DNA from: Tubulanus polymorphus
Lineage: Eukaryota > Animalia > Nemertea
Assembly (NCBI RefSeq): GCF_964204645.1
Contig: NC_134027.1
Coordinates: 20,422,560-20,486,559, forward strand
Reading direction: 5' to 3'
DNA: 64,000 bases
Both the position numbers and the translations under genes were made by a program. The notes under the pieces were generated by a model, which was given only the letters and a program-made list of their open reading frames with translations, was not told where the DNA came from and searched no databases. This document shows positions 5,700-46,369 of this stretch, in pieces. Every line of letters begins with the position of its first letter. Within the stretch, counting starts at the first letter, position 1.

Positions 5700-6120
5700 A
5701 TACATTTGAAAACCACCCTCTTAGAAATCGGTTACTATTAAAGAGTAGACACTAATAATGGTCACTCTTATAAGTAACCGTTTTGATAAAGGTGACTAAT
5801 AGTTACTCTCCATTTTTAAATGTATGGTTCTCATAGTCTACCTTTTCTTTAATGTACACTCTCAAAACCTTACCGTTCAGAAAGTATACTATTTTAAAGT
5901 ATATGGTACCAATCGTACACTCAAAATACCATATGCTTTACAACCAGAGACTTTCGAAAACCAACCGTTTCAGAATGTGTACTATTTAAAAGTATACGAT
6001 AGAAATCGCAGACTCTAAAAACCACATGTTTTACAACCAGAGACTTTCGAAAACCAACCGTTTAAGAGAGTGTACTATTTGAAAGTGACTATTCTAAAAC
6101 GTATACTACTGAAAAAGTAG
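5700..6120. repeat. Degenerate ~93-bp tandem repeat (about 4 copies) next to the truncated end of the Polinton-like element
   Basis: accgtt..a..gtgtactattt.aaagt recurs at ~5872, ~5964 and ~6057. caaccagagactttcgaaaaccaaccgttt is duplicated at ~5941 and ~6034. Confidence 0.7.
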
Positions 6121-6210
6121 CTGATATCATTAATTGCTTATTGTTCTCAAGAGGCGACTAAGTAAAAGTAGACGTTTGAGCTCAAAAGAGGGATAGACAT
6201 GTTCTTGGAT

Positions 6211-6942
6211 TCAGCCTTTCATATAATCATATAATAATGAAAATCCTTGATTGTATTGAGTTTGAATTATACTTGAAATATTTTCATCAGTTACTGTATC
6301 ATATTCTAAACATATATTCGATAATTTATAACTCATATCTTTAACAACGCTAGATAATACAATTTCATTTACAGGAGCAAATGTTATCTCAAATATAATA
6401 TCTTCTTGAATTGCGTATTTATATAAAGGTGCATTATTATTTATCAATTCAAAATCTAATGGAATTTTATATTTGCTTCCATAAATCTTTTTAATCAAAT
6501 TATCTGTGGCACGAGTTACTATTGCGTCATTAGCTCCTGATCTTAATTTATTATGGTTTTCCGATTGGATGCCTTGAAATATCATATTATTTCTATTTTC
6601 TTTAGTTAACCATAAATCTTTATAATGCATAAATAAATTATAATCATCTAATGAGAGAACTGTTTCTGGACCAATCTTTATTGTTAACTTTTTAATCAAA
6701 TATCTTCCAACATTATCAACAACATAATTATTATCATGGCCAGTTACTTTTATATCGGCTGATAAATAAATACTATTTGGAACATAAAAAGTATTTTGTG
6801 TTAATCTAGGAATTCTAACATATAAAGTTTCATCGGGATTAATATTTGAAGGGTTATGAGTAATTATACGATGTGATCTTTCTGCTTTAATAGCATTAGA
6901 TATTCTAGAAATCTTAGAAGGACTTATATAACTCCCACTCAT
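6211..6942 (-). CDS. Major capsid protein (double jelly-roll, Polinton-like virus type), C-terminally truncated
   Basis: ITHNPSNI..LYVRIPRL..YVPNSIYLSADI..DNVGRYLIKKLTIKI..YKDLW..LSNICLEYDTV pattern recalled from invertebrate Polinton-like MCPs. Breaks off at ~6218 after about 240 aa. Confidence 0.7.
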   Translation of the reverse strand: MSGSYISPSKISRISNAIKAERSHRIITHNPSNINPDETLYVRIPRLTQNTFYVPNSIYLSADIKVTGHDNNYVVDNVGRYLIKKLTIKIGPETVLSLDDYNLFMHYKDLWLTKENRNNMIFQGIQSENHNKLRSGANDAIVTRATDNLIKKIYGSKYKIPLDFELINNNAPLYKYAIQEDIIFEITFAPVNEIVLSSVVKDMSYKLSNICLEYDTVTDENISSIIQTQYNQGFSLLYDYMKG

Positions 6943-6966
6943 TTATTAAACAAAAAAATTAATTAT

Positions 6967-8427
6967 TTATTTTTTATTATTTTTTTCTTGATATCTTTTT
7001 GATATCATATTTACTAACCCAAAAATAATAGCACTTACAACTGTGATTAAAAATAAAATAATATGTTCAGCAGCAAAGTTAAGAATATTCCCAGCAGATT
7101 TCAATATAAAACCAACAATTGATGCAATAACTCCAGGTAAAGCTGCAGCAGATTTTTTAGATAGTTCCCATAAATATTTTGCTAATTTCTTTAAACCATC
7201 TTTAACTTTATCTTGTATAGAATTATTATCATTCGGGGGTTTATCCGGTTTATTGGGAGTAGGTGTAGATTTCAAAGCATTTGATATTGCTAAACCAATT
7301 GTTGTAAATAACATAGTTACAGCTGTTAGAATTGAAAGAATTGTTATTCCTTCTAATTTAAATAAAAATTTTATTCTATCTTTCAATGATATTTCAGAAT
7401 CTGGTTTCATCAACAAATCTTTAAAAATAACTTTTAATCTATTAATATTATAATCATATGATTTTAATAATAATTTAATTTCTTCTTTCTGTACTTCTAA
7501 ATTATCTTTTAAATTACTAATTTCTTTTTCTAAACGTAATTCTTTTTGCCTATATTCTATTTCATCAATGACTTGATGATCTAAATCAGACTTTAATTGT
7601 TCTATTTCTTTATTTTTATCAGTTAATTCTTTTTCTAAAGTTCTAATTTTAAAATCTCTTATACTTTTATCATGCGCAATTTTATCAGATGCAAGTCTTA
7701 TACTAATAATCTCTCTAATTGCTTTATCAGAAAATATATCTAAATCTTCTAATTCTTGATCTGTTGCATCAAGTAATCCCTTCGGTAAAAGTTTTTCAGT
7801 TTGAACTTCTCTTGAATTAGGTCTACTAGTTTTGGAAGTTTTATCTTCTTTAGGAATTGTTTCTGGTTCTAAATTTTCATTAATTATCTTAAAAAATTTA
7901 GCATTTCTTTGTTTAAATTCTTTTAAATTATCAGATCTTTCTTTTTGTGTAACATCAGTTATAACATCATTATTGATTTTCTTAATTCTAGATTGTTCTA
8001 ATAAATTAGAAGTTGATTGTGTTATTATTTTATCGGTACTTTTAATATTTGAAATCTTAAAATAATAGTCGCCTTTCAATTCCCAATAATAATCACCATT
8101 AAAATATTTCAAACCTTCTACTAAATAATCCATACCTTTATCTGTTATATTGAAACCAGATCTTTTTAACATTGGTTTAAATTCATCAGTTAATTTGTCA
8201 TATTCTAGTTCTTTTTTCATTAAATATGGATTTTTATTTTCATGATCTATTCTCGATTTAGCTCCTCTAATATATTCATTAGTATCAGGTCTTTCTAAAT
8301 TAGAATTATATGCTGTTTCATTTTCGTTACTGAAACTTGTTTCATCAAAATCAGGTGGTTGTTCATCACTTATACCAGGTTCATCTAAAGGATCCAATGG
8401 AAAACCTTCTCCACCTTCTACGTCCAT
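6967..8427 (-). CDS. Polinton-like virus protein: acidic N-terminus, long coiled coil and C-terminal hydrophobic helices (putative membrane protein)
   Basis: 486-aa open ORF with a heptad-rich middle. Hydrophobic segments GITILSILTAVTMLFTTIGLAI, ALPGVIASIVGFIL and IILFLITVVSAIIFGLV. TAAATG start. Confidence 0.75.
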   Translation of the reverse strand: MDVEGGEGFPLDPLDEPGISDEQPPDFDETSFSNENETAYNSNLERPDTNEYIRGAKSRIDHENKNPYLMKKELEYDKLTDEFKPMLKRSGFNITDKGMDYLVEGLKYFNGDYYWELKGDYYFKISNIKSTDKIITQSTSNLLEQSRIKKINNDVITDVTQKERSDNLKEFKQRNAKFFKIINENLEPETIPKEDKTSKTSRPNSREVQTEKLLPKGLLDATDQELEDLDIFSDKAIREIISIRLASDKIAHDKSIRDFKIRTLEKELTDKNKEIEQLKSDLDHQVIDEIEYRQKELRLEKEISNLKDNLEVQKEEIKLLLKSYDYNINRLKVIFKDLLMKPDSEISLKDRIKFLFKLEGITILSILTAVTMLFTTIGLAISNALKSTPTPNKPDKPPNDNNSIQDKVKDGLKKLAKYLWELSKKSAAALPGVIASIVGFILKSAGNILNFAAEHIILFLITVVSAIIFGLVNMISKRYQEKNNKK

Positions 8428-8443
8428 TTATATAATAAAAAAA

Positions 8444-9832
8444 TTAAAATTTCAAATATAATATTCCTCCGATTACAATTCCTATACAAGTTATAGCTAA
8501 TTTAGTATTTTCATGGGATTTATTGTCATTATCAGTTTTAATTATATCATGTTGAATATTATCAGTTTTAATATTTTCTGTAGTATTGTAATCTTTTATT
8601 TTGGAATCATTATCCAATTCAATATTCTTAGTTTTAGTTTCTGTTGATTGAATATGTTTTTTATTTTTTTCACCTTCCATTAATTTTGGAGCAGTGATAA
8701 TCTTTTTATTTATATCATTTAACCCAAATGAATTATTTATTGTCGCAGTTTTAATTAGATTATTATAACCAATTATATTTCCCATCTTTAATACTAAATC
8801 ATTAGAAATAATTAATAGATTAGGGCCTATACAATAATTTAATCTAATATGTGATTTATCTAAATAATTTTGATATCTAATAATGTTTTCTGGAATCGAT
8901 CTATTTTTATCATTATGTATGGAATCTTCAAATAATACTTTAAATTGTTTTTGTGTATCGAATGATGTATTCAAATTTCCAATTATCGGTGATCTTGTTT
9001 CAACTTGTGATCCTAGAATACAAATCAAATAAGTTCTAATAGATTGATTTATTCTTTCTATACCTGATTTAGTAAAACCTTCACTATTTTCTAAAATAAA
9101 ATAAACCCAACCATTATTGTTTTCTTGTTTTAAATTATCATAAAATTTCGGTAATTTATTGAAATTTAATGTTTCTAAATCCTCAGTTTCTATTTTACCA
9201 TAACCTAATTTATTATTATAGATATTATAAAAACTATTAGATGGTATGGGAAGTGCACAATATGCTGCAACATTTTCAGGGCAAGGAAGTGATCTTATTG
9301 TTCCAATTTTTGTTCTAAAATCAGAATTATTTATATCTATATTAAATTCATTGCAAATTTTATAAAACTTAGATAAATTAATATTACTATCTAATTCTTT
9401 GAAATACCTAGATCCTGGTAAAGCGCACTCTAATTCATTTAATATTATTCTTATTTGAAAGTATGTATGAAATCTAAATAAACTTTGAATTAATTTATAT
9501 TTAGAATTATTCAAATGATCATTCCAACTAATTCCACAACCTGTTGTTGCACAATAAACAGCAAAATTTAATTGGTTCTGCCAATACTTCATATTAGATT
9601 TTAATAACCATTGTTTTTCATCTTTCAATTTTTTAAAATTAATTAAATCTACATGAAATATATTTTCCATCTTTGCATTAAAATTATTAGTTTCAGTAAC
9701 ATAAATTTCTAAATTAGTTAATGAATCTAAAACTTCATTTCTATATGTAATATCTTTATTAAAATCTATTGCTGGAATATTATATTTAATTGATTTATTA
9801 TATTGGAAAGCTTTTGGAAAACTATCTGCCAT
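8444..9832 (-). CDS. Polinton-like virus hypothetical protein with C-terminal membrane anchor
   Basis: 462-aa ORF with MKYWQNQLNFAVYCATTGCGIS motif and C-terminal LAITCIGIVIGGILYLKF. TAAATG start. Confidence 0.75.
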   Translation of the reverse strand: MADSFPKAFQYNKSIKYNIPAIDFNKDITYRNEVLDSLTNLEIYVTETNNFNAKMENIFHVDLINFKKLKDEKQWLLKSNMKYWQNQLNFAVYCATTGCGISWNDHLNNSKYKLIQSLFRFHTYFQIRIILNELECALPGSRYFKELDSNINLSKFYKICNEFNIDINNSDFRTKIGTIRSLPCPENVAAYCALPIPSNSFYNIYNNKLGYGKIETEDLETLNFNKLPKFYDNLKQENNNGWVYFILENSEGFTKSGIERINQSIRTYLICILGSQVETRSPIIGNLNTSFDTQKQFKVLFEDSIHNDKNRSIPENIIRYQNYLDKSHIRLNYCIGPNLLIISNDLVLKMGNIIGYNNLIKTATINNSFGLNDINKKIITAPKLMEGEKNKKHIQSTETKTKNIELDNDSKIKDYNTTENIKTDNIQHDIIKTDNDNKSHENTKLAITCIGIVIGGILYLKF

Positions 9833-9995
9833 TTATATAATTAAAAAATTGATAATTTATTAATTCTTTTAATAATTTATCTTGTTCTTCAACTGTTATA
9901 TGACCATTTAAACTTATTATATAATCTAGTGTGTTCTTTAATTTATTAATTTCTTTTATATTAGTTTTAATTTTTTCTTTATTACTTTTTATATT

Positions 9996-10283
9996 TTATT
10001 TTGAACTTATACCGGTTAAAACACTTGAACTTAATCCTAACACACCAATTGATATAGCTAAAGGTGTTAATGGACTGAATATTGCTAGAAATGTCATTAC
10101 AGAACTAATTGTAACCGAACCACTAATAATAAGATAATATATAATTTTACTTTTTAAATATTTTTTCTTTTTTATCTTTAAGTCACTTTCAAATTCTAAT
10201 ATTTGTTTTTCTAAATATGTTTTTAATTTAGTTTTATTTATATCATGAGGAAAAATATCAATACTATCAACTTTATCTTCCAT
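9996..10283 (-). CDS. Small two-TM protein, probably cut short by a premature stop
   Basis: Two hydrophobic helices. The frame stays open past the TAA at 9996-9998 (NIKSNKEKIK...) to ~9840. TAAATG start. Confidence 0.6.
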   Translation of the reverse strand: MEDKVDSIDIFPHDINKTKLKTYLEKQILEFESDLKIKKKKYLKSKIIYYLIISGSVTISSVMTFLAIFSPLTPLAISIGVLGLSSSVLTGISSK

Positions 10284-10303
10284 TTATTTAGCAAAAAAAA
10301 TTA

Positions 10304-10726
10304 CTAATTAGTAAACTTATAAGCAACAAATATAACAATAACAGTTCCACCTAAAATCCATATTATTTCATATTTCTGTTGTTCTTTACTTGGGGTATAA
10401 TAATCTGATAATTTAGGTTTGTATAGATGTAATTTCTCTTTATTTGTTACTGCGTTATATAAACTCATTGCATCATCAACTAATTGAAAATCTCTATGTG
10501 AAATCTTCTGATCATATAATTCTTTGTTAATATAATCCATATAGTTTTGCCTCTTTTCTCTATATTCTTCTGCAGCTTTATTATATTTCTCTAACGCTAA
10601 GTTATGTCTTCTATGTTCTCCTAATGAACTATTTTTATCAATATGTTTAAATAAATAACCACCACCAGTAAATGCTAAAGCGTTAACAATTGCCGATCCT
10701 ATAATAGTTATAATTGCAGAAGCCAT
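10304..10726 (-). CDS. Small Polinton-like virus protein with N- and C-terminal hydrophobic helices
   Basis: 140 aa, MASAIITIIGSAIVNALAFTGGGYLF...RHNLALEKY...IIWILGGTVIVIFVAYKF. TAAATG start. Confidence 0.7.
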   Translation of the reverse strand: MASAIITIIGSAIVNALAFTGGGYLFKHIDKNSSLGEHRRHNLALEKYNKAAEEYREKRQNYMDYINKELYDQKISHRDFQLVDDAMSLYNAVTNKEKLHLYKPKLSDYYTPSKEQQKYEIIWILGGTVIVIFVAYKFTN

Positions 10727-10750
10727 TTATTTAGCAAAAAAATTATGTAT

Positions 10751-10972
10751 TTATATGGGAGGAATATATTTTTGTTTTTCTAAATAATCAATAGTTAAAT
10801 TAGATAAAGTAACTGCTAACGTTAATTTTAAAATATCATTTATATCAAATCTATCAACATTAACACTTCCCATTTTGAATACTTTTTTTAATACCATTGA
10901 ATAACCAACAGTTCCAACTGATAGTAATGCGCCATTATATAATCCAGTTATTATCCACTTATTATCACTCAT
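10751..10972 (-). CDS. Small hydrophobic viral protein (73 aa)
   Basis: Tight gene packing, TAAATG start and amphipathic helices. Confidence 0.65.
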   Translation of the reverse strand: MSDNKWIITGLYNGALLSVGTVGYSMVLKKVFKMGSVNVDRFDINDILKLTLAVTLSNLTIDYLEKQKYIPPI

Positions 10973-10975
10973 TTA

Positions 10976-11329
10976 TTAATCAAAAAAATTACTATCATCA
11001 AAATAATTAGTTATCTTATTTATGATTAATTCAACATTTATTTCATTACTAGTTTCATTTGTATATATTTCAATTATTATTTTTTTAATATCATCGATGA
11101 TAAAATCTTTATCTAATTCATAAAATCTTAAAGATTCTCTAATTAAATTAGTAATCTTTTCTACATTTAAAGTTTCTTTATCTATTGTTGTTTCATACTC
11201 AAATGTTGTTTCATTAGAAAATGCAATATTTTTAATATGTGTAATTACATCATTAACGTTAAATTTCATTTCTTTCTCACGTTTAAAATCAAACCCAAAA
11301 CATATACTCGGTCCAACAGTTATATTCAT
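10976..11329 (-). CDS. Hypothetical acidic viral protein (117 aa)
   Basis: Tight gene packing and TAAATG start. Confidence 0.6.
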   Translation of the reverse strand: MNITVGPSICFGFDFKREKEMKFNVNDVITHIKNIAFSNETTFEYETTIDKETLNVEKITNLIRESLRFYELDKDFIIDDIKKIIIEIYTNETSNEINVELIINKITNYFDDSNFFD

Positions 11330-11345
11330 TTATATAATGAAAAAA

Positions 11346-12102
11346 TTACTCTTTACATCTTATAACTAATTCATAAATTACAGGAAAGTTATTCAAATCA
11401 ATTAAATAACCATTGTGATTTCTTATTTCTAATTTAAAATTATTAAATTTAGGAATGCATGGTTTGAAATCACATTCTGTTAAATTATAATTTATTTGAG
11501 TTCCAAATTGTTTAACGTTCTTCATTGGTAAAATATTTAATATACTAGAATTACATGTTGTATCTTTAGTTGCTTCAAATGTTTTTGTAGGATCGATTAA
11601 ATTGCAATAAATATAAAAATGTGTAAAAGGTATTATATTTGAATTACCGTCTACGTTTCCTGTAACAATTTGTGGTTTAATTCCTAACAGTTTAGCTAAA
11701 GGTTTCCTTACCATAAATGCATGTTTGCTTTCATCATCTAACTTTATTTTAATTTTATCAGAACTATCACTTTTTATAAATCTAATTGAAAATTTATCTT
11801 CACTTCCAAGTTTTAATCGTGCTCTCCGATTTATTTCTTGGGTAAATGTTTCTAAATTATATAACCCTGGTTTTAAAAATAGATGAAACCATTTATGATT
11901 ATTTTTATTAAAAATTAAAAAGACTATGTTCAAGAGTTTTATCCGATATATTGTAAAATGAGTTACATAAACTTATATTTACTAATTTTAAATCAACACA
12001 ATTCTTAAATTCTCTATCTAATTGTACTAGTAAATTATGAGATTTATAATTTGTAAGCCTTCTAGAATCAACAAATATTCTGTATTCTTTTAATTCTACC
12101 AT
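11346..12102 (-). CDS. Penton/minor capsid-like protein split by a +1 frame discontinuity
   Basis: ORFs 11908-12102 and 11346-11933 carry IFVDSR, LCNSFYNIS, LKPGLYNLE, FYIYCNLID and LEIRNHNGYLIDLNNFPVIYELVI, typical of Polinton single jelly-roll pentons. Confidence 0.7.
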
Positions 12103-12170
12103 TATTTATAACATAAAAAAATTACCGCTCATCACTAAAAATTAATCTTAATAAAATTTTTCCTTAATAA

Positions 12171-13052
12171 ATGGATGAGAAGATAGCATGCGAAATTTGT
12201 GGCGAACTTCTAAGAAAAAGTAATATGGCTCGACATATGAAAAAACATGATGAAAATTATAGACCCCCTAAAATAAACTGCCCAAAATGTAATAAATTAT
12301 TCTCAAGAAATTATGTTAAAAAACATTCAGAGAAGTGTAGAATTAATGGCGCAACGGCTAATGTTGATAGTAATGAAAGTAATAGTAATTCTGCTGAAGT
12401 TGAACCTGAAGTTATTTGGAAAAGACCTTTCTTATTCTATGATAAGGATAATATAAAAGATCATTTCTGCGAGCCTTGTCGAATAAAATATAGCCCTGAA
12501 AATATAGAAGATTGGGAGAATCATCAATTTCGTAAAGTACATATAGATAAAATTTATAATAAATTTGAAACTGAATTTAATGAAAGAAAAAATAATTTAT
12601 TAGAAAAAATAAAATATGAGAAAACGTTACCAGATAATGAAGAAACAGTTGAAAAGTTAGAAAAACAATATAATGAATTAACAAGAAAACCATATTATTG
12701 TAAATATTGTAAATTGATTATTACAACAAGTAATTCAAATCTACATAATAGAACAATAAAACATAAAGAAAACGTAAGAAAATACCAAGAGCTTAATGAA
12801 GATCTATTACCAGTAAATTATAAACGAAAATGTCCACAATGTAGTTATGCGACCTTAAGGCAAGAAGGTACTGTGTTATTTTGTAATGAATGTGGATGGC
12901 AAAAGAATTTATTGGGTGACGAAAAAACTAGAGATTTTCTCATAGATCCAAAATTAAATTATCTAGATGAAATTTTTAAAATATTTTCTATGGAAGATCA
13001 TACACCAGAATATATGCAATGGCTTGAAAAAAATGAAAATAATAGAAAATAA
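12171..13052 (+). CDS. Multi-zinc-finger viral protein
   Basis: CEICG..HMKKH, CPKC..HSEKC, CEPC..H..H, CKYC..H..H and C4 CPQC..CNEC motifs. TAAATG start. Confidence 0.8.
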   Translation: MDEKIACEICGELLRKSNMARHMKKHDENYRPPKINCPKCNKLFSRNYVKKHSEKCRINGATANVDSNESNSNSAEVEPEVIWKRPFLFYDKDNIKDHFCEPCRIKYSPENIEDWENHQFRKVHIDKIYNKFETEFNERKNNLLEKIKYEKTLPDNEETVEKLEKQYNELTRKPYYCKYCKLIITTSNSNLHNRTIKHKENVRKYQELNEDLLPVNYKRKCPQCSYATLRQEGTVLFCNECGWQKNLLGDEKTRDFLIDPKLNYLDEIFKIFSMEDHTPEYMQWLEKNENNRK

Positions 13053-13488
13053 AAATGGAGAAATAACTAAAAAAGATATTATAAAAACAATTATTCCACC
13101 AACATTAAGCACAAAACAAAAGAAAATGTATTTATATTTATTATTTAACGATTATTATGAAAAACCTAAATTAACAGAAGAAGATATGGAAAATATAAAA
13201 AAAATATTCAAACAAATATTAATGTATCATTTGGAAAATAGAATAACAGATTCAATAAATTATGAATTCTTTTTAAATAAGATTGTAAATTATTTAAACA
13301 TCGATATTATAATTCCATTTGATGAATTAACAAACAAAAAGAAACAAAGAGAGCGAGATGAAATGTGGAACAAGATAGAACTTTATTTAAATGAGAGAAA
13401 TGGAATGGAAGAAGAACCTGAACAATTAAATGAAAATGAAGAAGCCAATAGTGATTTCGAGTATGATGATATTGATTTTATGTTTTAA
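12967..13488 (+). CDS. Hypothetical viral protein with acidic tail (true start probably ~13033)
   Basis: Open frame converging on the polymerase stop codon. Confidence 0.55.
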   Translation: MKFLKYFLWKIIHQNICNGLKKMKIIENKNGEITKKDIIKTIIPPTLSTKQKKMYLYLLFNDYYEKPKLTEEDMENIKKIFKQILMYHLENRITDSINYEFFLNKIVNYLNIDIIIPFDELTNKKKQRERDEMWNKIELYLNERNGMEEEPEQLNENEEANSDFEYDDIDFMF

Positions 13489-16400
13489 TAGCCATAAGGT
13501 AATGTTTTTATACCATCATCTAAAATATGCCTTTTATCATCAAATGGATTTAAACTAGTTTTTTCAACTTCATTAATGTACATCTCATGATCTTCTGATC
13601 TTAAACAATTCATTTTGTGTTTCATTACAATTGATTTATATAAACACTTTATATAATCTTGAAATTCTATATGTTTATCAACCACATGTTTTGTTATTCC
13701 TTTTAACTTTTTAGCTTCATGATCTTTTGTTCTGTAACTATACATTTTACTTCTTATCCCAACAAATTCAATCATTTCATCACCCCCTAATTCATCTTTA
13801 AATTTACCAGGAATCTTTTTATTATCATTGCTAAATAGTTCATGATCTTTGGGATAATTGCTAAAATCAAAATGATGTTTTAATGTTTTTAAGTCTTTTG
13901 TTATGTCATTTGTCTTGATTTTTAGTATGTAGGCGTCAGTATTGACCGCTATTAATGGAAATCCACAGTTAAATGTACCATCTTCAGTTGATAAATCATA
14001 AACATAATCTGTTGGGTTATATATTTCAAATAAATCCTTAACTTCTTCTGTTAACTCATTTTCTACATGGCTTAAATTAAAGCAATTTGGTTTAGATTTA
14101 ATCAATCCAATATTCATATTAAATCCTAATGAAGTGCATAATATATTCAATCCTGATATAGCAACTTTTCCTTTTTGAGCTAAAGATATTGTTTTGTGGT
14201 TTTTGAAACTTTTTGAACCATCTGCTGCGTAGAATCCAATGAAGAACCATTTTCTTAAATTATTTTTTGCATTTAATACATAATCTGGAACTATCTTTTC
14301 TTTTGTTGAAGTATTACTTTTAACTATTGCATGAATATAGAATTCATCATTATATTTAATTGCAAAATCTTTAGGGTTATTCACACGTATTCTAAAAACT
14401 GCCGATGATTTCATATGATCCACGATTCTAAATTTTTTATGTGAATAGACTTCTTCACAGAATTTTTTAATTCTTTCTAATAATTTGTTTCTTGATTGCA
14501 TAAATACCAACAATATTGAGTGCGATTAACATATTTATACACACCTGCTGAACCATCACCCATGAAAAATCCTTTGATAAAATATTCTTTTTCTTTTAAT
14601 GTTTCGGGTTCTATATTATAAATATTATCAATAATTTCATCAAATGACATATGATTCATTCTTTGGAAAAATCTTTTATGTAATAATTCATCTCCAATTT
14701 TTATATCAGTTGGTTTTATTTCATCACCATTTCGTTTAATTAAACTATGATCTTCTGTAACATCTACAAATCCTAATTTAGTTCTAACTCTATAGATTTT
14801 CTTATTTGTTTTATGCCTAATAATATTCTTTAAATTTTTCCATCCATTTCTTGTCCAAACATCCATTAAACCATTTATTTGTATTAATTCTTTTTCTCCA
14901 TATGAAATATAACATTCATTTTGTTTTGGAATTATTTCTGAAATTCTTCTTACCAATATTTTATTATTACATTTTAATAATATTGGGGTGTCAGCTGTTA
15001 CAGAATCAAAATATAATATTTCAATATGCTTTTCCCCAAAAAGTGGTTGTAAAACATTATAATAAAAATCATACATTAATAATTTTGATACTTCTAAAAC
15101 AGTCGAACCAATAAACATAGGTTTATTAAATTTCATTGATGTTCTTTTTAATTTAACTGCTGTTAAATAATCTTCAAATCTTTTATTTCCTAAATGTCTA
15201 GGACTTGATTGTAAATGTCTTAATCTTTCAGAATTATTTACTAATTCAATATCATTTCTATTTCTAATATTTTCACATGTTTTACCATAAAAACTATTAT
15301 TCATTAATTTGAAGAAATCTTTTTCAAAATCTGTTTTTGATATGGTTCTCTGTTGAGTATTGAAATCTATATGTTTCTTGTTTTAAACTTTATATTTTCA
15401 GGATATTCTAAATCAACTACAAAGAAATAACCAATTGGTGCTTCATCTTTTAAACTCGCAATTGCGCTTTCCCAATCAGTTTTATCACCATTTTCAACTT
15501 CTGTTAATATAAAATTTTTAAAATCTCCCATAACACCACTAATTCCACCTCTAATTGATTTTTCAAATAATAAAACCATATCTGGTTCTTTTAATAAATC
15601 TAATTCTACATTTTTATATTTTAAACCACATTGCCAGGTTAAACCAGGACTAGAGTAGCAATAACAAGGATCAACATTAAAATGATTCAAATTAACTTCT
15701 CTAAATTTTTCAAATATGTCAGCCAATATCATTACATCTGATTTTAAATATAAATCAACTAATTCACCATGATTTTTCATCTTAAAATGGTTCCAAATAT
15801 TTAATGTTCTATTAAACACTTCATCTTTCACATACTCCTCTTTTAATTGATCATAAAATTGATCTTTTAATAATTTTGTTACATTAAAATCATCATGTGT
15901 TTTATAAAATGAATAAGGAATTGCGCCTTAATATCTCAATAATTTAAAATCTTGTTCCATTGGATAATAATATCGAGTTATAACAAAATCATTATCAACT
16001 AAACTTTTTGATAAATTATCTAATGAACTTGCTAGAAATCTATAAGAATCTAAAAATCTAATGCAACCAAATTGAAATGAAATATAATTTTCGGATGTTT
16101 TAGCTAATAGTTTAAAATCATATTTTCTTACATTTACACCATTCATAGCATCATATTCTTCTATTTCTTGATTAATTGCGCCCAATTTTCCCGATAATTG
16201 TTTTATAAATAGATGGGTATCATATCCTGATAAATTATGAAATATTATTGGTACGAAATTTACTTTTTTAGCTTGTAAATTGCAATCTTCATGAGCAGCT
16301 CCACGATATTTTGAATTCAAATGATCATGATCTCTAACTTTTTTATCAAATGAATAAAAACGTTTTTCACAATAACAACTATGAGTTGCATAATTAAAAT

Positions 16401-18226
16401 CAATAACATCTTCTTTTGTCATAACTATTCTTTTATTTTTGTTTAATAATTTTGTAAAATCACTTTCTAATTCAATCATTTTGTCACAAAAATCATTAAC
16501 TACATTTTCACCTCTAAAAGAAATATATTGACTTTCATATAATTCGGGATAATTTGATTTGATGTAAATTCCATAAGCAGCAGCTCTTTGATGAACTTTT
16601 TTAATTGTATTTATAATTGGTGGGTCTTGTATTGTGTCTTCATTTAATTCATTTCCTTTATCCATTGATTTTAATAATTGCTTTTTGTTATATATTTCTT
16701 TTCTATCTTGATCAGTTAATTCTTTATTCAACGATTCAAAATCCCCATAAATTACAAATGGAACAATATTTTTAAATTTATGATTAGTAAATTTCAATTT
16801 ATAATCTTTTTCTGTTGGCATTATTAATTTACAAAAATCTTTATTATCACATATTTCTTTATGTTTTAGTAACGCATTCTCAGTTCTAAATTTATATAAA
16901 CATTTTCTACATAGATAAATTTTATGGCTGTTAAAATCACTTTCTGTTCTAAAGAATAAATCAATTTGTTTTAACCACATATAATGTTCATTTTCATCTT
17001 TTTTGTAATATAACAAATCTATAGCATTTTCATCATCATAATATTCTGTTAAATATAAAGCTTCCAATGTATAATCTTTAATATTTTCACCTTTTGTCTT
17101 TGGTAATTCCATTAATTCGAATACATTTATTTTTAACTTATTAATTTTTTCTATTTTGGGTATCATTTTTATAGTTACTGGATATTGATCAATTTTATAT
17201 AATGTTTCATATTTCCGATAATCTGTTATTCTACAAACATTTTCCTGTGTTGGATGTAAGCAACTAATAATTGACCATAGAAAACATTTATTATCTTCAT
17301 TTTGAATATTTATTACTGCTTTTGTCGTAAATGGTAATTTAATATAAGATGATGCTTTAATATCCTTTTCTGTTGTAAAGTTTGAATCATTTTTAAACAT
17401 TGTTTTACTTTTTGATGTTATATTTCTTTTTGTATTGTAAACATTTAAATCTAAATATATAATTTCATTCAATGTTAAGCCAGAACCCTCAAAATATCTT
17501 TCTTCAATATGACGTTTAAATCCATTAAATATTTTTTCTAACTTCTCTTTTATTTGTGTTTTTGAAATTATTTCTTCAGAGTGTGTTTGAATATTATAAT
17601 TCATTTTTTCTTCTGACTTTATAAAACTTACTTTCCCAGAGATACTAATTTTTGGATATTCAACATCTGTTATCAAATCTAGTATTTTTTTCTATTATTT
17701 CATTAAATTTACTATAATCTTCTATTGTTGTACCTTTAAAGAATCTAAATATAATAGCCGCAGGACCAATTTTACTATGTAATGTTTCTAAAATTTCAAT
17801 TGTATCTTTTATTTCTAGTGAATCAATATAATTTCTAACATTTTCCATGTAAGGTTTATTTGAAATGGATTTAGTTTTTGAAGTTGGTTTTTTTACTTTT
17901 TGAGGTTTATCATCGAAATAATCTTTTCCTAAAACATTATTACTCAAATTTTGATGGTGTTTTTGTGATTCGAGATGTCTATTATAATTCCTTTTTACTA
18001 TAAATTCATTAGAAACTTCACATTTTATTTCATCCAAATTCATATTTTCTAATCGTTCTTTTCTTTCATTGGAATTTTCTGGAGTTTCAAAATCTATTAC
18101 ATTTTTTATATGATTTGAAGACTTTTCATGACGCGATTTTTGAGATTTATCAATGTATTTTTTACAATATGGACAATGATATTGATTTTCATAAACATCA
18201 ATTTGTTCTGTCTTATTCTCTTCCAT
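13485..18226 (-). pseudogene. polB: Protein-primed family B DNA polymerase (pPolB) with N-terminal zinc fingers, inserted endonuclease VII-like domain and an intein; inactivated
   Basis: SSYIKLP..VINIQNEDNKCFLWS; ExoI IYGDFES; ExoII FHNLSGYD; YLKSDVMILADIFEKFR; motif B KLMNNSFYGK; motif C YFD|TDA; GKFKDE..RSKMYS..KLKGI..FDDKR. Lesions: frameshift ~17670, TAA at 15928-15930, motif A missing (deletion ~15525), a second deletion ~15370, and a frameshift ~14490. Confidence 0.93.
13941..15004 (-). mobile_element. Intein with LAGLIDADG homing endonuclease in pPolB motif C (pol-c site)
   Basis: Block A SVTADTPILL; block B VDVTEDHSL; blocks C/E IKGFFMGDGS and FIGFYAADGS; block F YVYDLSTEDGTFNCG; terminal IAVN followed by +1 Thr (TDA). 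1064 bp with one frameshift near 14490. Confidence 0.93.
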
Positions 18227-18249
18227 TTATAAGGAAAAAAAATTACTTG

Positions 18250-18566
18250 TGGTGATGAGTGGGGATTACTTCCCCCTGTATATAACAAGTGCGCTATTAA
18301 CCGTTCTCACCCAAGCCTCACAGCATCTATTTATCCGGGTACAGTTGACACGCAATCACTGTACTACTACAGTAATAGCACACGCGTTAATAACCGTTCT
18401 CAGTAGAGACTCACTGTATCGATCTATCCACGCGCAGCTGCTGTTACGCGCACTCACTGTATATGTGTGTCACAGAGCAATCGTCCGTTCTCACTAGAGC
18501 CTAGCTGTGATGAGTGGTGTCTCGACCTCTCGACCTCTGATCTGAAAACGCCATCTTCTAATTACT
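18250..18566. repeat. Putative right terminal region/TIR of the Polinton-like element
   Basis: Non-coding and more GC-rich. Short repeats (a)ccgttctca at ~18299, ~18393 and ~18485, and ctcgacct x2. Ends in ATTACT. Confidence 0.55.
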
Positions 18567-23540: not shown

Positions 23541-25858
23541 GTTTCCCCAGTGACATCAACTCCCACTATGTATACTCGTCCACTATAGAGTATTGGGAGG
23601 AAATGACTTTTTGTGGACGAATGTACATGGAGGCAAGAAAGATAGAGATAGGGAGGGTGGGAGGGAGCCAAAAAACACATCCTAAGTCAACACCAGAGGG
23701 GAAACGTGAGGGTCCATCCAGCCACAATACGGACTCATCGTCCACCGAGTCTTCAGGCAAACTGTGTAGTATCAGATTATTACACTGGTGTCGCTCCCCT
23801 TATGTATACTCGTCCACTATAGAGTATTGGGAGGAAATGACTTTCGCATTCCGATTGAATATGCAGGGACCCAGATGATCAGATCAGGCAACTATCTATC
23901 CTTTTCCCCTTTCTCATGCCTCTCTCCTTCTCTCAAAACTCATCAACAAAAAGAGAGAGGGATGGGAGGACGTCTAGATATTTCCAAACAAGCTTATAGG
24001 CCTAACAGCAAACCTCTCTTCCCTAAACTTACAAAGTCGTGAGAGAATGGGACTTGTGTTTGTAAGTGATAGATATCCAAGCACAGGTCTAAACAATCAG
24101 GCAGCTGCTTCTTGATGGTAGACTACCACAGTGCATGTTCAACCTGGGGCAAAAACCCACCCCGGTAGCCAAGAATAATTAAATAAGCAATAAAGATAAA
24201 TGCAGAAAATTGCGTCAATTGCTACAAAATATAACCAGGGTTAGGAAGCCCCAGACCGAACTCGCGTGAACAAAGTCCACTAGGGTAAAAGTCACCCTGA
24301 GAACGACGAGTAAATTCCCAAACGCCCAAGCCAAACAAGGGTTAAAGAACCGAGGTAAAGACCTGCAGAGACCTCTAAAGATCCACGGGCAAGAAATTTG
24401 CCGGTTGACCAAATTGTGAGTTTGAGCAGCTGCTTCTTGATGGTAGGATTCCACAGTGCAAGTTCAACCTGGGGCAAAAACCCACCCCGGTAGCCAAGGA
24501 AAAAATTAAACAAGCAATAAAGATGAAAGCAGAAAATTGCGTCAATTAATACAAAATATAACCAGGGTGGGAAGCCCGCTAGGGTATGAGTCACCCTGAG
24601 AACGACGAGGAAATTCCCAAACGCTTGAGCAAAACAAGGGTTAAAGAACCGAGGTAAAGACCTACAGAGACCTCAAAAGATCCAAGGGCAAGAGATTTAG
24701 TGCATATCACATGCAGTGGATCAGATAACAATGACAAAAGCTTACTATAATGCAAGTATAGCAGACCGAGATATCTCAATAATAACAAAAATAAAATGTA
24801 TGAATTTGTGAGCAGTATTCGCTGTTAATAATATGACACACTAAAACCAAACTACGTGTAACACATTCTAGCCAAAAATGTTACCGGCCTCGCTAGCCAT
24901 ATACTTAGCTAACGCAAGCCATTAACCCTTTAGCCATTGCTTGCCACACATTTTTTTCTGCCCAACCTCACTAGTTGTCACAAAATCTTAACTGCCCAAC
25001 CTCACTAGATGTCACAAAATCTTAACAGCCCAACCTCACTAGTTGGCACAAAATCTTAACTGTCCAACCTCACTAGTTGGCGCAAAATCTTTTCTGCCCA
25101 ACCTCACTAGTTGGCGCAAAATCTTTTCTGCCGAACCTCACTAGTTGGCGCAAAATCTTCACTGCCCAACCTCACTAGTTGGCGCAAAATCTTCACTGCC
25201 CAACCTCACTAGTTGGCGCCAAAATCTTCGCTGCCCAACCTCACTAGTTGGTGCAAAATCTTAACTGCCCAACCTCACTAGTTGGCGCAAAATCTTCACT
25301 GCCCAACCTCACTAGTTGGCGCAAAATCTTCACTGCCCAACCTCACTTGTTGGCGCAAAATCTTCACTGCCCAACCTCACTAGTTGGCGCAAAATCTTCA
25401 CTGCCCAACCTCACTTGTTGGCGCAAAATCTTCACTGCCCAACCTCACTAGTTGGCGCAAAATCTTCACTGCCCAACCTCACTAGTTGGCGCAAAATCTT
25501 CACTGCCCAACCTCGCTAGTTGGCGCAAAATCTTCACTGCCCAACCTCACTAGTTGGCACAAAATCTTCACTGCCCAACCTCGCTAGTTGGCGCAAAATC
25601 TTCACTGCCCAACCTCACTAGTTGGCACAAAATCTTCACTGCCCAACCTCACTAGTTGGCGCAAAATCTTCACTGCCCAACCTCACTAGTTGGCGCAAAA
25701 TCTAAATCATAAAACTTCCGAAGCCCCAACCTCACTAGTTGGTAAAGAAATAAGACGGAATGCTCACCAGTCAAAAGTCGACCGATCGGGCTGAAGACTT
25801 CAGGCAAACTGTGTAGTGTCAGATTATTACACTGGTGTCGCTGATGTCACTGAGAAAC
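23541..25858 (-). mobile_element. Non-coding element with Ngaro/PAT-like split direct repeats (A1...B1A2..B2)
   Basis: Repeat A at 25798-25842 and 23751-23795; repeat B at 23794-23844 and 23560-23610. Internal ~300-330-bp duplication (~24100-24400 vs ~24425-24700). Outer inverted 17-18-mer. Confidence 0.55.
24958..25742. repeat. 34-bp tandem minisatellite (~22 copies) with an internal hairpin
   Basis: Unit ctgcccaacctcactagttggcgcaaaatcttca, containing a ccaac...gttgg stem. No spacers. Confidence 0.95.
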
Positions 25859-30573: not shown

Positions 30574-31330
30574 CATGTTTCATGTAACAATATCTGGTTT
30601 AATTCCTAACAATTTAGCTATTGGTTTTTTTTTATAATAAAAGAATGTTCATTTTCATCATCTAACTTTATTTTTATTCTATCACTTTTCATAAATCTAA
30701 TTAAAAATTTATCTTCACTTCTAATTTTCAACCGTGCTCTTCTATCAATTTCTAGCTCTAATGTTTCTAAATTATATAATCCTGGTCTTAGATATAAAGT
30801 AACCCATTTGGTTTTTATTTCTAATAAAAATCAAAAAAGCATTATCTTCAGTGGTTTTATTTGAAATATTATAAAAAGAATTACATAAACTAATATTTAC
30901 TAATTTCAAATCAACGCAATTTTTAAATTCTCTAACTAATTGTATTTGTTAATTATGTGATTTTTGATTAAGCAGTTGTCTAGAATCAACAAATATTCTG
31001 TATTCTTTTAATTCTACCATCTATTTTACATATTTTTTTATTCGAAATCTATATCATGACATCCTTGTTCATTCTTACCTTTATATATGAAATAGAAATC
31101 ACCGGAATATAATTCTTCAATATCTTCACTAGATAATCTATGAAATCTATCTGGTTAATATGTTTATCTACAGATTTGACATTTTTAGTATCTTTAATTC
31201 TTTTTAAGAATTCACTGTGTATTTGTTTACTCTCCATTTATTATACATATCTTTCATTAAAATTGATTTTCATATATATGATATTCATTTATATAATGTT
31301 CATATATATGAATATTATTAGAAGGAATGG
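30574..31330 (-). pseudogene. Second, diverged Polinton-like fragment (5' part of penton gene plus small upstream ORF 31049-31237)
   Basis: 30574-31020 aligns with ~11654-12102 (MVELKEYRIFVDSR, EFKNCVDLKLVNISLCNSFYNIS, PGLYNLE). Contains an in-frame stop. Confidence 0.85.
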
Positions 31331-42700: not shown

Positions 42701-44396
42701 ATTTCTGGATATTCTGTTGATTTCATGGCCTTAGATTCGAATGCAATGTGTGGATTTGGGTGTGAAAGACTCCGCCGTTTTACCCCCTCTCTGTCTGTTG
42801 CTTCTGATGGGGTCGACCATTTTGCACCGGATATTAGCAAAGAGGACAATCCTTCTTACATCTTCCCTCCGTTCTGTATGATTTCGGCCGTTTTACAGTT
42901 TTTGATGTTATTTCGTAAGCCGGTGACTATGGTCTTCCCGCACATCTTTCCTCGGCCAATTTGGTGGCCACTTTTAGATGCAGTGACGTTTGAGAGGGAT
43001 TTACTCGGGGGTAGGGGAGAAAAGGGTGTGATTTTGATGCCGTCTAAGTAGGGTTTTACCCCAGATAATACGGGGTTGAGGTATGATTTGTATGTATACA
43101 GGTTCCATTTCGGTGGCTAATTACACCTTTTGTTTCATTTGAATGCCAATAAACTGCTGTACTTGATACGTCACGTCTTGCGTTTTATGATTTCAGGAAG
43201 TCCCAGTTCTTTGCATAGAATGTCGAGTTTTCGTCCTTGCTGATGACAATTTCTGTGGCAACTGCGGAACAGATCGAAAACAGCTTCGACTTGATTTCTA
43301 AAACACTGATTTCGATTCAACCGTGGCCGCGTCGGTGGAAGACTCGGATAAAAGACTGGCATATATGGAAACTTTCGAAAAAAAGTTTAGCTTACAGGAA
43401 AAATAAAACAGCTTTATGTCGGGATTTCAAAACCTTTCTGAACTCCCTGAATCCCCGGAGGACCACGTTTTCGTCCACTTTTCGTCAATTTCTTGCCTTT
43501 AGGGATCGCAGAGGGAGGACGAAGGTTCATAATTTGACTTGTGGCGTGAGAAATATCCTTGGGATGGGCTGTTTGTGCCCAACTATACTCGCGACTGGAA
43601 CCGTCGACTCATACATAGGCCATTTTAGGGCACATTTCAATTCGATCGGGAGAACTGGGGTATGAGTAATAGGGAATATGGGGGTTCATACCAAAGGTCG
43701 AACGGTCGAGCACACTCTCCCCTTCAACCTTTGATATGAAACAACTTATTCATATAAATGAACATTATTTACATGAATTTCATATATTTTAAAATCATTT
43801 ATATGTTAATTACACAAGTGTGAGTAAAGTGTGAGTAATAATTCACGTATTAATACGTATTGAATACATTGATACGTATTGAATACGTATCAAATACATT
43901 GATACCTAAAACCCCCTTTTTGATTAACTAATATTTCATACATTTCAGCTAATGTAACGTATATTTCGTGATTTATCATTTAGTTTATGAATGTACAATG
44001 TACACAATTCAATACTTAAACAGTTTAACAATCTAATGGATTCATTGTAATCCTCTTTTAATAATGATGAACATAAATATATAATTGAATATGATTTATA
44101 CTTTTCCAAATATTTATAATAAATCTGTGAGGTAAATAAATATTGAAACGGAAATATATATGATAAAACTATTTATGATATTTGTACTAGACGTACGAGT
44201 AAGAATCCAAGAATCCAAGAAATCTTACTTTCTTGGCAAGAATCTTGGTTTCTTACTCGTACGTTTAGTACATACATACATAAATTAGTTTCATAATAAT
44301 TATGAATATGAATTATCAATCAAAGTATAGAAATTTAAGTGAAAACATATAATTTATTCATTTTTATATATTTCAGCCAATTTAACAGTCTATTGC

Positions 44397-44702
44397 TTAA
44401 TTTGAATTATACAGTTTATTATTTAGCTCATGAATATACGTGTGATTCCTTAATGATTTTTCATTTTTATGCTTTTTATTGCATATTTTACAGCATTTAA
44501 TATTATTCAATCTATCTGAAATATAATTTATATTTTCTTTTAATTCTGTATATCTAATTTTACAGCTATCATAGAATTCTAACAACTGTTTTATAATATA
44601 AACTGAGAATGAATATAAACCTGAAATCATAATAATTGATTTAATATTCTGTTGATTTTTATATATTAGATGTAATATTTCTAATACCTTATTTTCACTC
44701 AT
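44397..44702 (-). CDS. Small protein with a hydrophobic segment and a C2H2 zinc finger
   Basis: CKICNKKHKNEKSLRNHTYIH; tataaaaATG start. Confidence 0.55.
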   Translation of the reverse strand: MSENKVLEILHLIYKNQQNIKSIIMISGLYSFSVYIIKQLLEFYDSCKIRYTELKENINYISDRLNNIKCCKICNKKHKNEKSLRNHTYIHELNNKLYNSN

Positions 44703-44749
44703 TTTTATAGTTAAAATATATAGAATAAATTAAATCAAAAGATGCTGTT

Positions 44750-44971
44750 TTAATCCACAATATCATTTAAATCATTAACTTTTTTATTCTTTTTATTTCT
44801 GTGATTGTTTCCATTTACCTTCTTTAATTTCTTGCTCAATTTTATATTTCCATTAATCAAATCCTTACTGATATTTTCATAGTAAAAGAAAAGCGCAGCT
44901 AAAATTAATCCTCCTGCTACTAAATAATGCTTCAAATCACTTTTCCCAGTTGGAATGCTGAAATCATCCAT
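44750..44971 (-). CDS. Small single-TM basic protein
   Basis: YLVAGGLILAALFFYY; aatttttttcttaaataaATG start motif shared with the large element. Confidence 0.6.
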   Translation of the reverse strand: MDDFSIPTGKSDLKHYLVAGGLILAALFFYYENISKDLINGNIKLSKKLKKVNGNNHRNKKNKKVNDLNDIVD

Positions 44972-45138
44972 TTATTTAAGAAAAAAATTAATAAATTGAT
45001 AAATATTTAATATTTTAGAAATATTTAACTTTCATATGTTTCAAATCAAATAACAATTAAACTTACTTCCTAACAGTTATTCATTAACTAATTTTTCAAT
45101 GCTTTAACTACTATATATTTGAAACATACAGCTTAATC

Positions 45139-45805
45139 TTATTTCAATATAGAATTATTATTCATTTCATATTCGATATGTTTGATTGTCTGATAATGTT
45201 TTGATTTATGTGATTTTAAATATTTGCCACCACAATAACAATACACTTTTTCATTAGGATTGAATTTTCTAAATTCATCATCTAAATTACATTGAACTGC
45301 AACATCTTTGAATGATTGTTCATTATCTAATTCACATTGAATACCAATATTTGATGAATTTTCATTATAGATGATTTGTTTATTATCAAAAATAAAAATT
45401 GAAATTGAAATAATATAATTGTCTTTTTTCAATTCTTAAGTTAATCAAATCATTATAATCTTTAGAAAGTATTATATCACTTTTTCTTTCATTGAAAGGA
45501 GTTTTAAGAATATTAATTATGTTTTCATCTAAAGTTCCTTTAAAATTTAAAACTGTATTGAACATTTTAGGATTTTTAACACCATTATCAAAAGTATCAA
45601 TTAGTTCAGTAATTAAATATGTTTCATTTGATGATATTTGATTAATCATAGTAATGTTATCAATTTTATAATACCTTGCGGACACTAAATTTGTTGCTGA
45701 GATATGATTTTTAATGTTAAACTCTGAAAATAATTTATTGGTTTCTTTTATTTCGATTTTGAATTTAGGTTCTTCTTCTTCTGTCTTCATTTTTATAACA
45801 AACAA
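45139..45805 (-). pseudogene. Frameshifted protein with repeated IGIQCELD/VAVQCNLD motifs and a C-terminal CxCG..H..H zinc finger
   Basis: Overlapping ORFs 45386-45805 and 45139-45432; CYCGGKY..HKSKHYQTIKH. Confidence 0.5.
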
Positions 45806-46369
45806 TTCATTAAAACTCGTTTCAAATATAAATATTCAATGTTGAAATATGAATTATTTCAATCACACTTTACTCACACTTTTAATGTTTGAAAATCTAA
45901 CTCATACAAATATAAATATTGAAATATGTTTAAAATATAAACTATTTCACTCACACTTTACTCACACTTTTATATTCTTTTAGTTATTCATTTATTTTAC
46001 TTATATTTTTATTCGAAATCTGTTAAAATATGAATTATTACTCACACTTTTGTAATTAACATATAAATGATTTTAAGATATATGAAATTCATGTAAATAA
46101 TGTTCATTTATATGAAATTATTGGGAGTAATAGGGAATATGGGGGTTCATATCAAAGGTTGAAGGGGAGAGTGTGCTCGACTGTTCGACCTTTGGTATGA
46201 ACCCCCATATTCCCTATAACTGGTATGGAATCTACGGTTATTCTTTGGGAATCCAGCTATATCCGAAAAGGTCAGGGGGTATCTTAGAGTAAGTAAAAAG
46301 GAGTTTATATTTTATATAAATTGACATTTTTTTTTCTATTTAAATTTCTTAAATTTATATTCAGATCTA

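Follow-up and report, generated by a model that had tools for sequence, protein, structure and literature searches.

Integrated virus-like elements such as mavirus and the EMALEs, Sputnik and PgVV (Gezel-14T) carry their helper virus's promoter on their own genes, and in the available accounts their lineage-specific motifs are taken to indicate different helpers. Their hosts are protists, their helpers are of the mimivirus type, their motifs are TCTA or AAAATTGA, and their helper dependence is experimental. For the Polintons of animal genomes the question is how they get transcribed and whether any of them needs a helper virus; the known helper-dependent cases come from protists, together with entomopoxvirus-associated polinton-like viruses (PLVs) by co-occurrence alone. 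Here we analyse a 64,000-nucleotide stretch of the genome of the nemertean Tubulanus polymorphus (NC_134027.1, positions 20,422,560 to 20,486,559; hereafter the window, with positions counted from its first letter), which holds at about 6221-18566 a decayed Polinton with a motif of the poxvirus late promoter type at the start of every gene. For this Polinton, helper dependence is proposed from sequence.

The window element, taken together with its close relative L003, resembles the Polintons or Mavericks (polintoviruses, adintoviruses) of invertebrates, as set out in the available text of two reports (PMC11131425; PMC8502044), in its protein-primed PolB, rve-chromodomain integrase, A32 ATPase, double-jelly-roll capsid, AGT-type terminus, many integrated copies and occasional VLTF3. 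It differs from them in the uniform motif at every gene, and the word 'promoter' is absent from the available main texts of both reports. No adenain-type protease was seen in the parts examined of the window element and of its relative L003, neither of which is a complete element. Entomopoxvirus-associated PLVs (AHEV_PLV1/2, CBEV_PLV1 and Ca_PLV1) are likewise small double-stranded DNA preplasmiviricots and are proposed hyperparasites of poxviruses in animals, to which viruses they are linked by co-occurrence in occlusion bodies; their description sets them apart, with a protease present and a tyrosine recombinase or none in place of an rve integrase, and its available main text contains none of the terms promoter, motif, transcription, VLTF or intein (PMC11296320). 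Yeast pGKL virus-like elements share the pPolB-based linear form and a TAAA initiator, but, as described, they lack a capsid, have upstream elements of early type and encode both an RNA polymerase and a capping enzyme themselves (PMC6211774).

In vaccinia, according to the available sources, late promoters consist of TAAAT followed by G, overlapping the start codon, with a conserved T at the tenth nucleotide upstream that intermediate promoters lack (PMC11980589); a review places a T-containing core 5-7 bp from TAAAT (PMC5294985). Slippage on three template Ts gives a poly(A) leader in vaccinia and in the pGKL elements (PMC6211774). The late motifs reported for asfarviruses and pacmanvirus (TATATA) and for CroV (TCTA) are both unlike the window motif.

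A late-promoter-like motif at ten gene starts

A preliminary description of the window listed nine gene starts that combine a T-run with (A/T)ATAAATG (6942, 8427, 9832, 10283, 10726, 10972, 11329 and 18226 on the minus strand, 12171 on the plus strand). All nine coordinates are exact: each is the A of an ATG that opens an open reading frame (ORF) within W-ATAAATG, with a T-run upstream. Aligned on the ATG, the motif reads A-A at -18/-17, T6-8 at about -16 to -10, a short spacer and W-A-T-A-A-ATG. The invariant columns are -18, -14 to -11 and -4 to +3, with A at -18, T at -14 to -11 and A at -4 in 9/9; AAT6-8 is fitted strictly by eight of the nine, whereas 12171 has T5 only. The tenth gene, a probable penton starting at 12102, has both TAAAT and T-run 3 nt further upstream, mutually in register. 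Coverage is thus complete, with nine exact motifs and one displaced by 3 nt, and all ten genes have a T-rich element with T 10 nt upstream of TAAAT.

As sequence, the motif matches both published vaccinia late-promoter descriptions, with a 6-nt spacer. TAAATG lies over the start codon exactly at 9/10 genes, the T-run places a T 10 nt upstream, and the base after ATG is G or A. Relative to the vaccinia promoters as described in the sources available, the Polinton motif differs in standing on every gene including the DNA polymerase, in being more uniform and in having the extra AA at -18/-17.

The motif is far more frequent than chance predicts. Across both strands of 6200-18250 there are 489 ATGs and 33 TAAATGs, and the TAAATGs with a T5 run 3-7 nt upstream number nine, which are exactly the nine gene starts. 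Markov simulations of orders 1-5 (500 each) gave a mean of 0.9-1.1 such sites and a maximum of 6, so that 0/2,500 reached nine, and in 20,000 rounds of shuffling the 30 nt upstream of the ten gene starts, sites averaged 0.04 per round and never exceeded 2. The enrichment over an AT-rich background on which the preliminary description had staked its proposal is therefore borne out (nine against about 1 in simulations and 0.04 in local shuffles). In the remaining 52 kb of the window only two such sites occur, at 44971 and 58529. A sigma-70 scan stayed at chance level (95 against 113), and an Rfam search gave no match.

The genes are packed tightly, as had also been claimed: tandem gaps are 24, 16, 20, 24, 3 and 16 bp, and the lone 163-bp gap is only apparent, because the neighbouring gene is broken and its tail lies at 9941-9852. 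At 8427 and 11329 the TAA stop of the upstream gene occupies motif positions -19 to -17, and at 8427 this stop sits in the motif's TAA. The penton (12102) and zinc-finger/VLTF3 (12171) starts face each other with 68 nt between their ATGs and a motif at both. Several starts contain TATAAA, AATAAA is part of 5/9 motifs and only 6/9 T-runs spell TTTTTNT, the poxvirus early terminator that the preliminary description had brought to bear on the T-run. That part of the proposal fails, since the runs also stand at the divergent starts 12102/12171 and at the terminal gene (18226); the T-run is not the upstream gene's terminator.

Conservation of the motif and AT-matched controls

Relatives were the best 80 of 404 loci from a metagenome scan; a quick tree of the 462-aa protein family comprised 66 rows, with loci whose matches fell under 250 aa left out, and start counts are confined to non-overlapping ORFs at least 100 aa long. 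In the tree the window copy falls with L001-L004 (clade A; Shimodaira-Hasegawa-like approximate likelihood ratio test, SH-aLRT, 99), and seven loci form a second motif-bearing clade with a support of 100 (clade B); after L014 and L078 had been added to the latter by capsid similarity and the near-duplicate L011 dropped, eight loci were counted. TAAATG opens 24/26 ORFs of clade A (L001-L004), with T at -13 in 23 of these 24, and 26/29 ORFs of clade B (35% GC), with T at -13 in 17/26 and a peak at -14. At 55 TAAATGs that are not starts, T occupies -13 in 40%. The motif is retained at 35-44% GC (7/7 in L015, 3/4 in L009), stands before structural, replication and, in L015, integrase genes alike, and is present in full at both divergent starts of L003 (10981/11054). 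Head-to-head ATGs only 14 nt apart, each in TAAATG, occur in L008 (2766-2781), L012 (2396-2411) and L014 (1984-1999); in these bidirectional promoter sequences each TAAATG supplies the other's upstream Ts.

Among the controls, TAAATG opens 2/46 ORFs of nine AT-rich relatives without the motif, 3/62 and 1/56 in two GC-richer clades, 0/10 in the distant Polinton L128, 19/176 (11%) in 18 giant-virus loci whose GC content is at most 27%, and 7/18 in an entomopoxvirus-type locus. In the motif clades the base at -3 is T; the Polinton controls have a purine there in 33/46, 46/62, 38/56 and 10/10 cases. AT-richness alone is insufficient to account for the motif, because TAAATG is rare at the starts both of AT-rich relatives without it and of AT-matched giant-virus loci.

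Other upstream words occur elsewhere in the family. A sister clade of ten partly redundant loci (L035, L043, L046, L056, L058, L061, L064, L070, L071 and L079) has no TAAATG and carries WWTGAAA within 60 nt upstream of 19/69 ORFs, 17 of the 19 at -32 to -23 (shuffle mean 3.2, maximum 10); this word resembles NCLDV (nucleocytoplasmic large DNA virus) and poxvirus early promoters. In the 29%-GC relative L066, starts read TATA(T)A-ATG rather than TAAATG, which recalls the asfarvirus late motif TATATA. IMG/VR scans returned no relative of the 462-aa protein, capsid or polymerase; a scan of prokaryote genomes gave none with the capsid and, with a polymerase, two misbinned Polinton loci. L128 and P0173 are Polinton sequences that were assigned, probably through misbinning, to metagenome-assembled genomes of bacteria.

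A decayed copy of a multi-copy Polinton

The gene set, the read depth and the diverging read ends identify the region at about 6221-18566 as a decayed, truncated and frameshifted copy of a multi-copy endogenous Polinton, with the following features.

6221-18566, no strand: decayed Polinton copy, 24% GC (from GC, X7 read ends and depth)
6940-6960, minus: motif AA-T7-spacer-TAAATG of the major capsid gene
6221-6942, minus: major capsid protein gene, cut short, with about 240 codons left of about 415 (similarity to P0122 and P0122 model)
8425-8445, minus: motif of a 486-aa coiled-coil/hydrophobic gene (6967-8427) with homologs in 33 loci
9830-9850, minus: motif of a conserved 462-aa gene (8444-9832)
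10281-10301, minus: motif of a broken gene, about 9850-10283 (144 aa in a relative)
10724-10744, minus: motif of a 140-aa gene (10304-10726)
10970-10990, minus: motif of a 73-aa gene (10751-10972), overlapping the end of the upstream gene (3-bp gap)
11327-11347, minus: motif of a 117-aa gene (10976-11329)
11346-12123, minus: probable penton (minor capsid) gene in two pieces, including the tenth motif (12100-12123) with TAAAT 3 nt upstream of the usual place
12153-12173, plus: motif of the zinc-finger/VLTF3 gene, head-to-head with the penton motif
12171-13488, plus: gene for a zinc-finger and VLTF3-like late transcription factor, two frames here, one protein in relatives
13485-18226, minus: protein-primed polymerase gene (five ORFs tile the polymerases of relatives)
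13941-15004, minus: intein (LAGLIDADG domain) inserted in the polymerase at YxD|TDS, two frames
18224-18244, minus: motif of the polymerase gene (377 reads diverge at 18219)
18252-18506, no strand: 255-bp insertion with 11-bp direct repeat flanks (skipped by 438 reads)

The element lies within repeat-rich eukaryotic DNA of 35-45% GC with LINE, Gypsy and ALOG-type remnants, and its 16 ORFs are pieces of ten genes. In X7, another sample under the same species label, raw DNA reads (about 12% of the run) cover the element to a depth of 149-1034 and its single-copy flanks to one of 24-29, and most of the reads on the element are 90-99% identical to it. At the right terminus, about 18566, 459 X7 reads leave the reference into heterogeneous flanks; at the left edge (6221), inside the capsid gene, 505 continue differently. 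An AGT-type terminus is a Polinton hallmark, as are terminal inverted repeats with a 6-bp target duplication; of the two ends of this copy, the reads map the right one, the left being missing. The reads diverging at 18219 place the polymerase-gene motif probably within a terminal inverted repeat, the position of which we infer, and most copies are without the 255-bp insertion, as the reads that skip it attest. In run X1, the summed contig depth over window 6051-18458 is about 100-900 times that of the flank, which is far above the X7 raw-read ratio and is not a copy number; it hints that the element may have been amplified in that sample. Four small contig sets with the same species label (one guessed to be RNA) gave only a few short partial matches and, having no positive control, are uninformative on expression. 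A second fragment of the same Polinton family lies at 30577-31300 (80% identical; the penton start and the gene from the L003 start), with ATAAATG at 31237 and 31291 and no clear T-run, and the host DNA of the window also holds tandem arrays of 34-bp units and about 60-bp units (24839-25802 and 47720-48180).

The ORF at 6942 covers residues 1-240 of a 415-aa capsid protein and is 77% identical to P0122, whose predicted structure matches the double-jelly-roll capsids of PBCV-1, an iridovirus and mavirus (E 1e-10 to 4e-8). Five ORFs at 18226-13485 tile single protein-primed polymerases of 1319-1365 aa at 37-78% identity (the named relatives are from beetles, a coral and an anemone), so the polymerase gene, broken here, starts at the 18226 motif. 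The gene at 11346-12123 has no Pfam match, and we take it to be the penton from its place in Polinton gene sets. The retrovirus-like integrase, which has gone from the window copy along with its left end, is found in L003 (rve and chromodomain; capsid 77% identical), as is the A32-type packaging ATPase (Pox_A32, E 5e-11), of which the window copy has none. L003 also carries a deoxynucleoside kinase gene (10340-10981) with the full motif. One conserved 254-aa candidate has no Pfam or PHROG match. Genes for RNA polymerase, capping and helicase were found neither in the window nor in the 11.5-kb L003, which spans the portion that the window copy lacks; no element was seen in full.

The ORFs at 12171 and 12967 correspond to one zinc-finger/VLTF3 protein in relatives. 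The matching part of the relative P0290 falls with VLTF3 clusters in 27/30 Atlas matches, and among 1.84 billion representatives four proteins matched, namely two homologs from Polintons, one protein without assignment and P0292. Of the four, P0292 is the one that reaches the full Pfam VLTF3 score; it shares 63% identity with the VLTF3 encoded by a 232-kb genome that has genes of entomopoxvirus type and that we presume to belong to the entomopoxviruses. In a search of 13 records VLTF3 was matched in eight; one match, which contained a stop, was dropped. A VLTF3 tree of 13 rows places the Polinton and entomopoxvirus sequences on one side and seven giant-virus VLTF3s on the other (99/98). With the predicted fold, cowpox VLTF3 was the first match and an entomopoxvirus VLTF3 the second, giant-virus VLTF3s following from rank 4; by sequence, no solved structure matched. 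The best non-Polinton matches are thus poxviral, and the element's VLTF3 appears to lean poxviral.

The preliminary description took the intein as an independent pointer to NCLDVs. Its nearest IMG/VR relatives (37 loci, best 44%, 17 of them named giant-virus bins) do occupy the same site in giant-virus PolB. Yet the intein is absent from 120/120 related Polinton polymerases and is private to the window copy (one of the 120 alignments ran past the site, and in that protein the motif is unbroken), and those giant-virus loci do not mainly use TAAATG. The intein shows NCLDV contact at some time, presumably recent, not necessarily with the helper, and not dependence. Homing-endonuclease insertions have already been noted in Polinton polymerases (PMC11161782, in the text available).

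A possible poxvirus-like helper

We consider it reasonably probable that the window region is a dead, host-integrated member of a Polinton family, and that a co-infecting pox-like cytoplasmic DNA virus provides the RNA polymerase that transcribes the family's intact members. Because the parts seen contain no RNA polymerase and one late-type viral promoter appears to serve replication, integration and capsid genes, the arrangement would, by analogy with the described cases, be the signature of mavirus and Sputnik. While integrated in the host chromosome, the element would stay silent. Once a helper infects, its post-replicative machinery would read free copies of the element DNA in the viral factory, with the T-run acting as the upstream element and TAAAT being the initiator. 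Polymerase slippage at the three Ts of the template would yield capped mRNAs with a non-templated poly(A) leader ending at the AUG, and therefore no untranslated region (UTR) would be needed and the T at -3 would never enter the mRNA. The element's VLTF3-like protein may bias or supplement the helper's late complex; its polymerase, ATPase and capsid would replicate and package the DNA, and its integrase would re-insert it. The poxvirus-late-like initiator proposed in the preliminary description gains comparative support from the motif's geometry, its conservation in two clades, the AT-matched controls and the pox-leaning VLTF3. The same evidence lends comparative support to the proposed virophage-like lifestyle. 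The element itself is a Polinton and not a virophage of the Lavidaviridae type.

We regard it as unlikely that the motif is instead a compact nuclear core promoter that host RNA polymerase II reads, perhaps after recruitment by the VLTF3-like zinc-finger protein that the element encodes, its likeness to poxvirus promoters being due to descent or convergence. The element is integrated and multi-copy in the nuclear genome, has its own transcription factor and has no helper that was found, and TATAAA lies within several starts. But the TATA-like word abuts the ATG and does not precede a start site by about 30 nt, the T at -3 makes for a poor Kozak context where Polinton relatives without the motif have a purine, and head-to-head ATGs 14 nt apart leave no room for UTRs. 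Coding strands moreover hold 4-6 AATAAA per kb, which synonymous shuffles found depleted in no Polinton group, in a test that separated no groups. Coding-strand TTTTTNT did not discriminate either, being depleted in clade A (6 against 15) and likewise in giant-virus loci. It seems very doubtful that there is no promoter at all and that AATAAA is the upstream gene's poly(A) signal, or the T-run its terminator, merged with an A-rich start context in a packed AT-rich genome. The matches to AATAAA and TTTTTNT, in five and six of the nine motifs, and the stop codons that coincide with the motif at 8427 and 11329 would fit. Against this, the full motif stands at divergent starts in the window and L003 and at the terminal gene, with nothing ending upstream, its spacing is fixed relative to TAAAT, and it persists at 35-44% GC.

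A helper from a non-pox giant virus lineage whose late promoter is also a T-run with TAAAT would accord with the intein's nearest relatives in giant-virus polymerases (17/37 matches in named giant-virus bins), with a TAAAT motif noted in ranavirus polymerase promoters in the literature available, and with L086-L088, which have TAAATG at 3-5 of 12-17 starts. We judge it improbable, given that the late motifs described for asfarviruses, pacmanvirus and CroV differ, that VLTF3 leans to poxviruses and that AT-matched giant-virus loci use TAAATG at so few starts. As for an autonomous element like yeast pGKL, with its own pox-like RNA polymerase in a part not seen, the pGKL elements are reported to be polinton-derived and to use a TAAAN initiator and 5' poly(A) leaders made by their own polymerase; with polymerase, capping and helicase genes found in neither the window nor L003, we give this idea hardly any weight.

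Several observations weigh against a pox-like helper as the source of transcription. Within the family the motif is unevenly spread: it marks two distinct clades, both well supported, plus a few single loci, and at least three changes are needed on the quick tree. The entomopoxvirus-type control has T at -13 in only 3/7 TAAATG starts. TAAAT is displaced at four starts, and at only two of them is the T still in register. The window's C-terminal VLTF3 piece scores 23.5 bits on Pox_VLTF3, below the Pfam cut-off of 25, and its predicted fold is of modest quality (pLDDT 65, TM 0.3). The 13-row VLTF3 tree is unrooted and without asfarvirus, iridovirus, chordopoxvirus or PLV sequences; AT-driven composition could pull VLTF3 toward entomopoxviruses; and coral polintoviruses are also reported, in the text available, to have VLTF3. 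The intein points to mimivirus-like giant viruses over poxviruses. Every step beyond the sequence pattern is inferred, the motif was judged on ORF starts rather than mapped start sites, and no transcript, 5' end or helper genome was seen. An integrated copy would also first have to be expressed in, or excised from, the nucleus, a step that the proposed course of events does not cover.

One of the two T-run/TAAATG sites outside the Polinton belongs to a 2.5-kb element of about 21% GC (43665-46221) that adjoins an ALOG-domain ORF. It has inverted ends of about 165 bp, the right one a hairpin with a 38-bp stem, and three ORFs, of which 44971 has the full T-run/TAAATG and the other two start in TATAAAA-ATG. 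No homology to Polinton proteins was found, and the idea that ORF 44750-44971 is a homolog of the 73-aa gene was rejected when BLASTP gave no match. One possibility is that this small element is a transpoviron-like satellite with the same helper as the Polinton.

Poxvirus-associated PLVs and VLTF3-bearing polintoviruses have already been described, in texts that, as available, contain no promoter analysis. In the open full-text literature, subscription papers and supplements lying outside the search, we found no report of the motif in Polintons. The motif is a real feature and, as a sequence pattern, well supported; the transcription mechanism is proposed. More tentatively, and with rather less confidence than we place in the reading of this locus, we suggest that integrase-bearing invertebrate Polintons include endogenous virophages of undiscovered poxvirus-like viruses, each of their genes bearing the full poxvirus late promoter and their VLTF3 being a captured gene of pox type, and that sister clades have switched helpers (one of them carries the early-type WWTGAAA at -32 to -23). 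A 25-bp motif held in common with the best-studied poxvirus promoter makes the helper question testable. From the motif one would expect pox-like viruses to exist in hosts in which we saw none, and it suggests an endogenous antiviral role like that of mavirus. If this is true, promoter motifs in fossil elements would be a map of the unknown giant viruses of animals.

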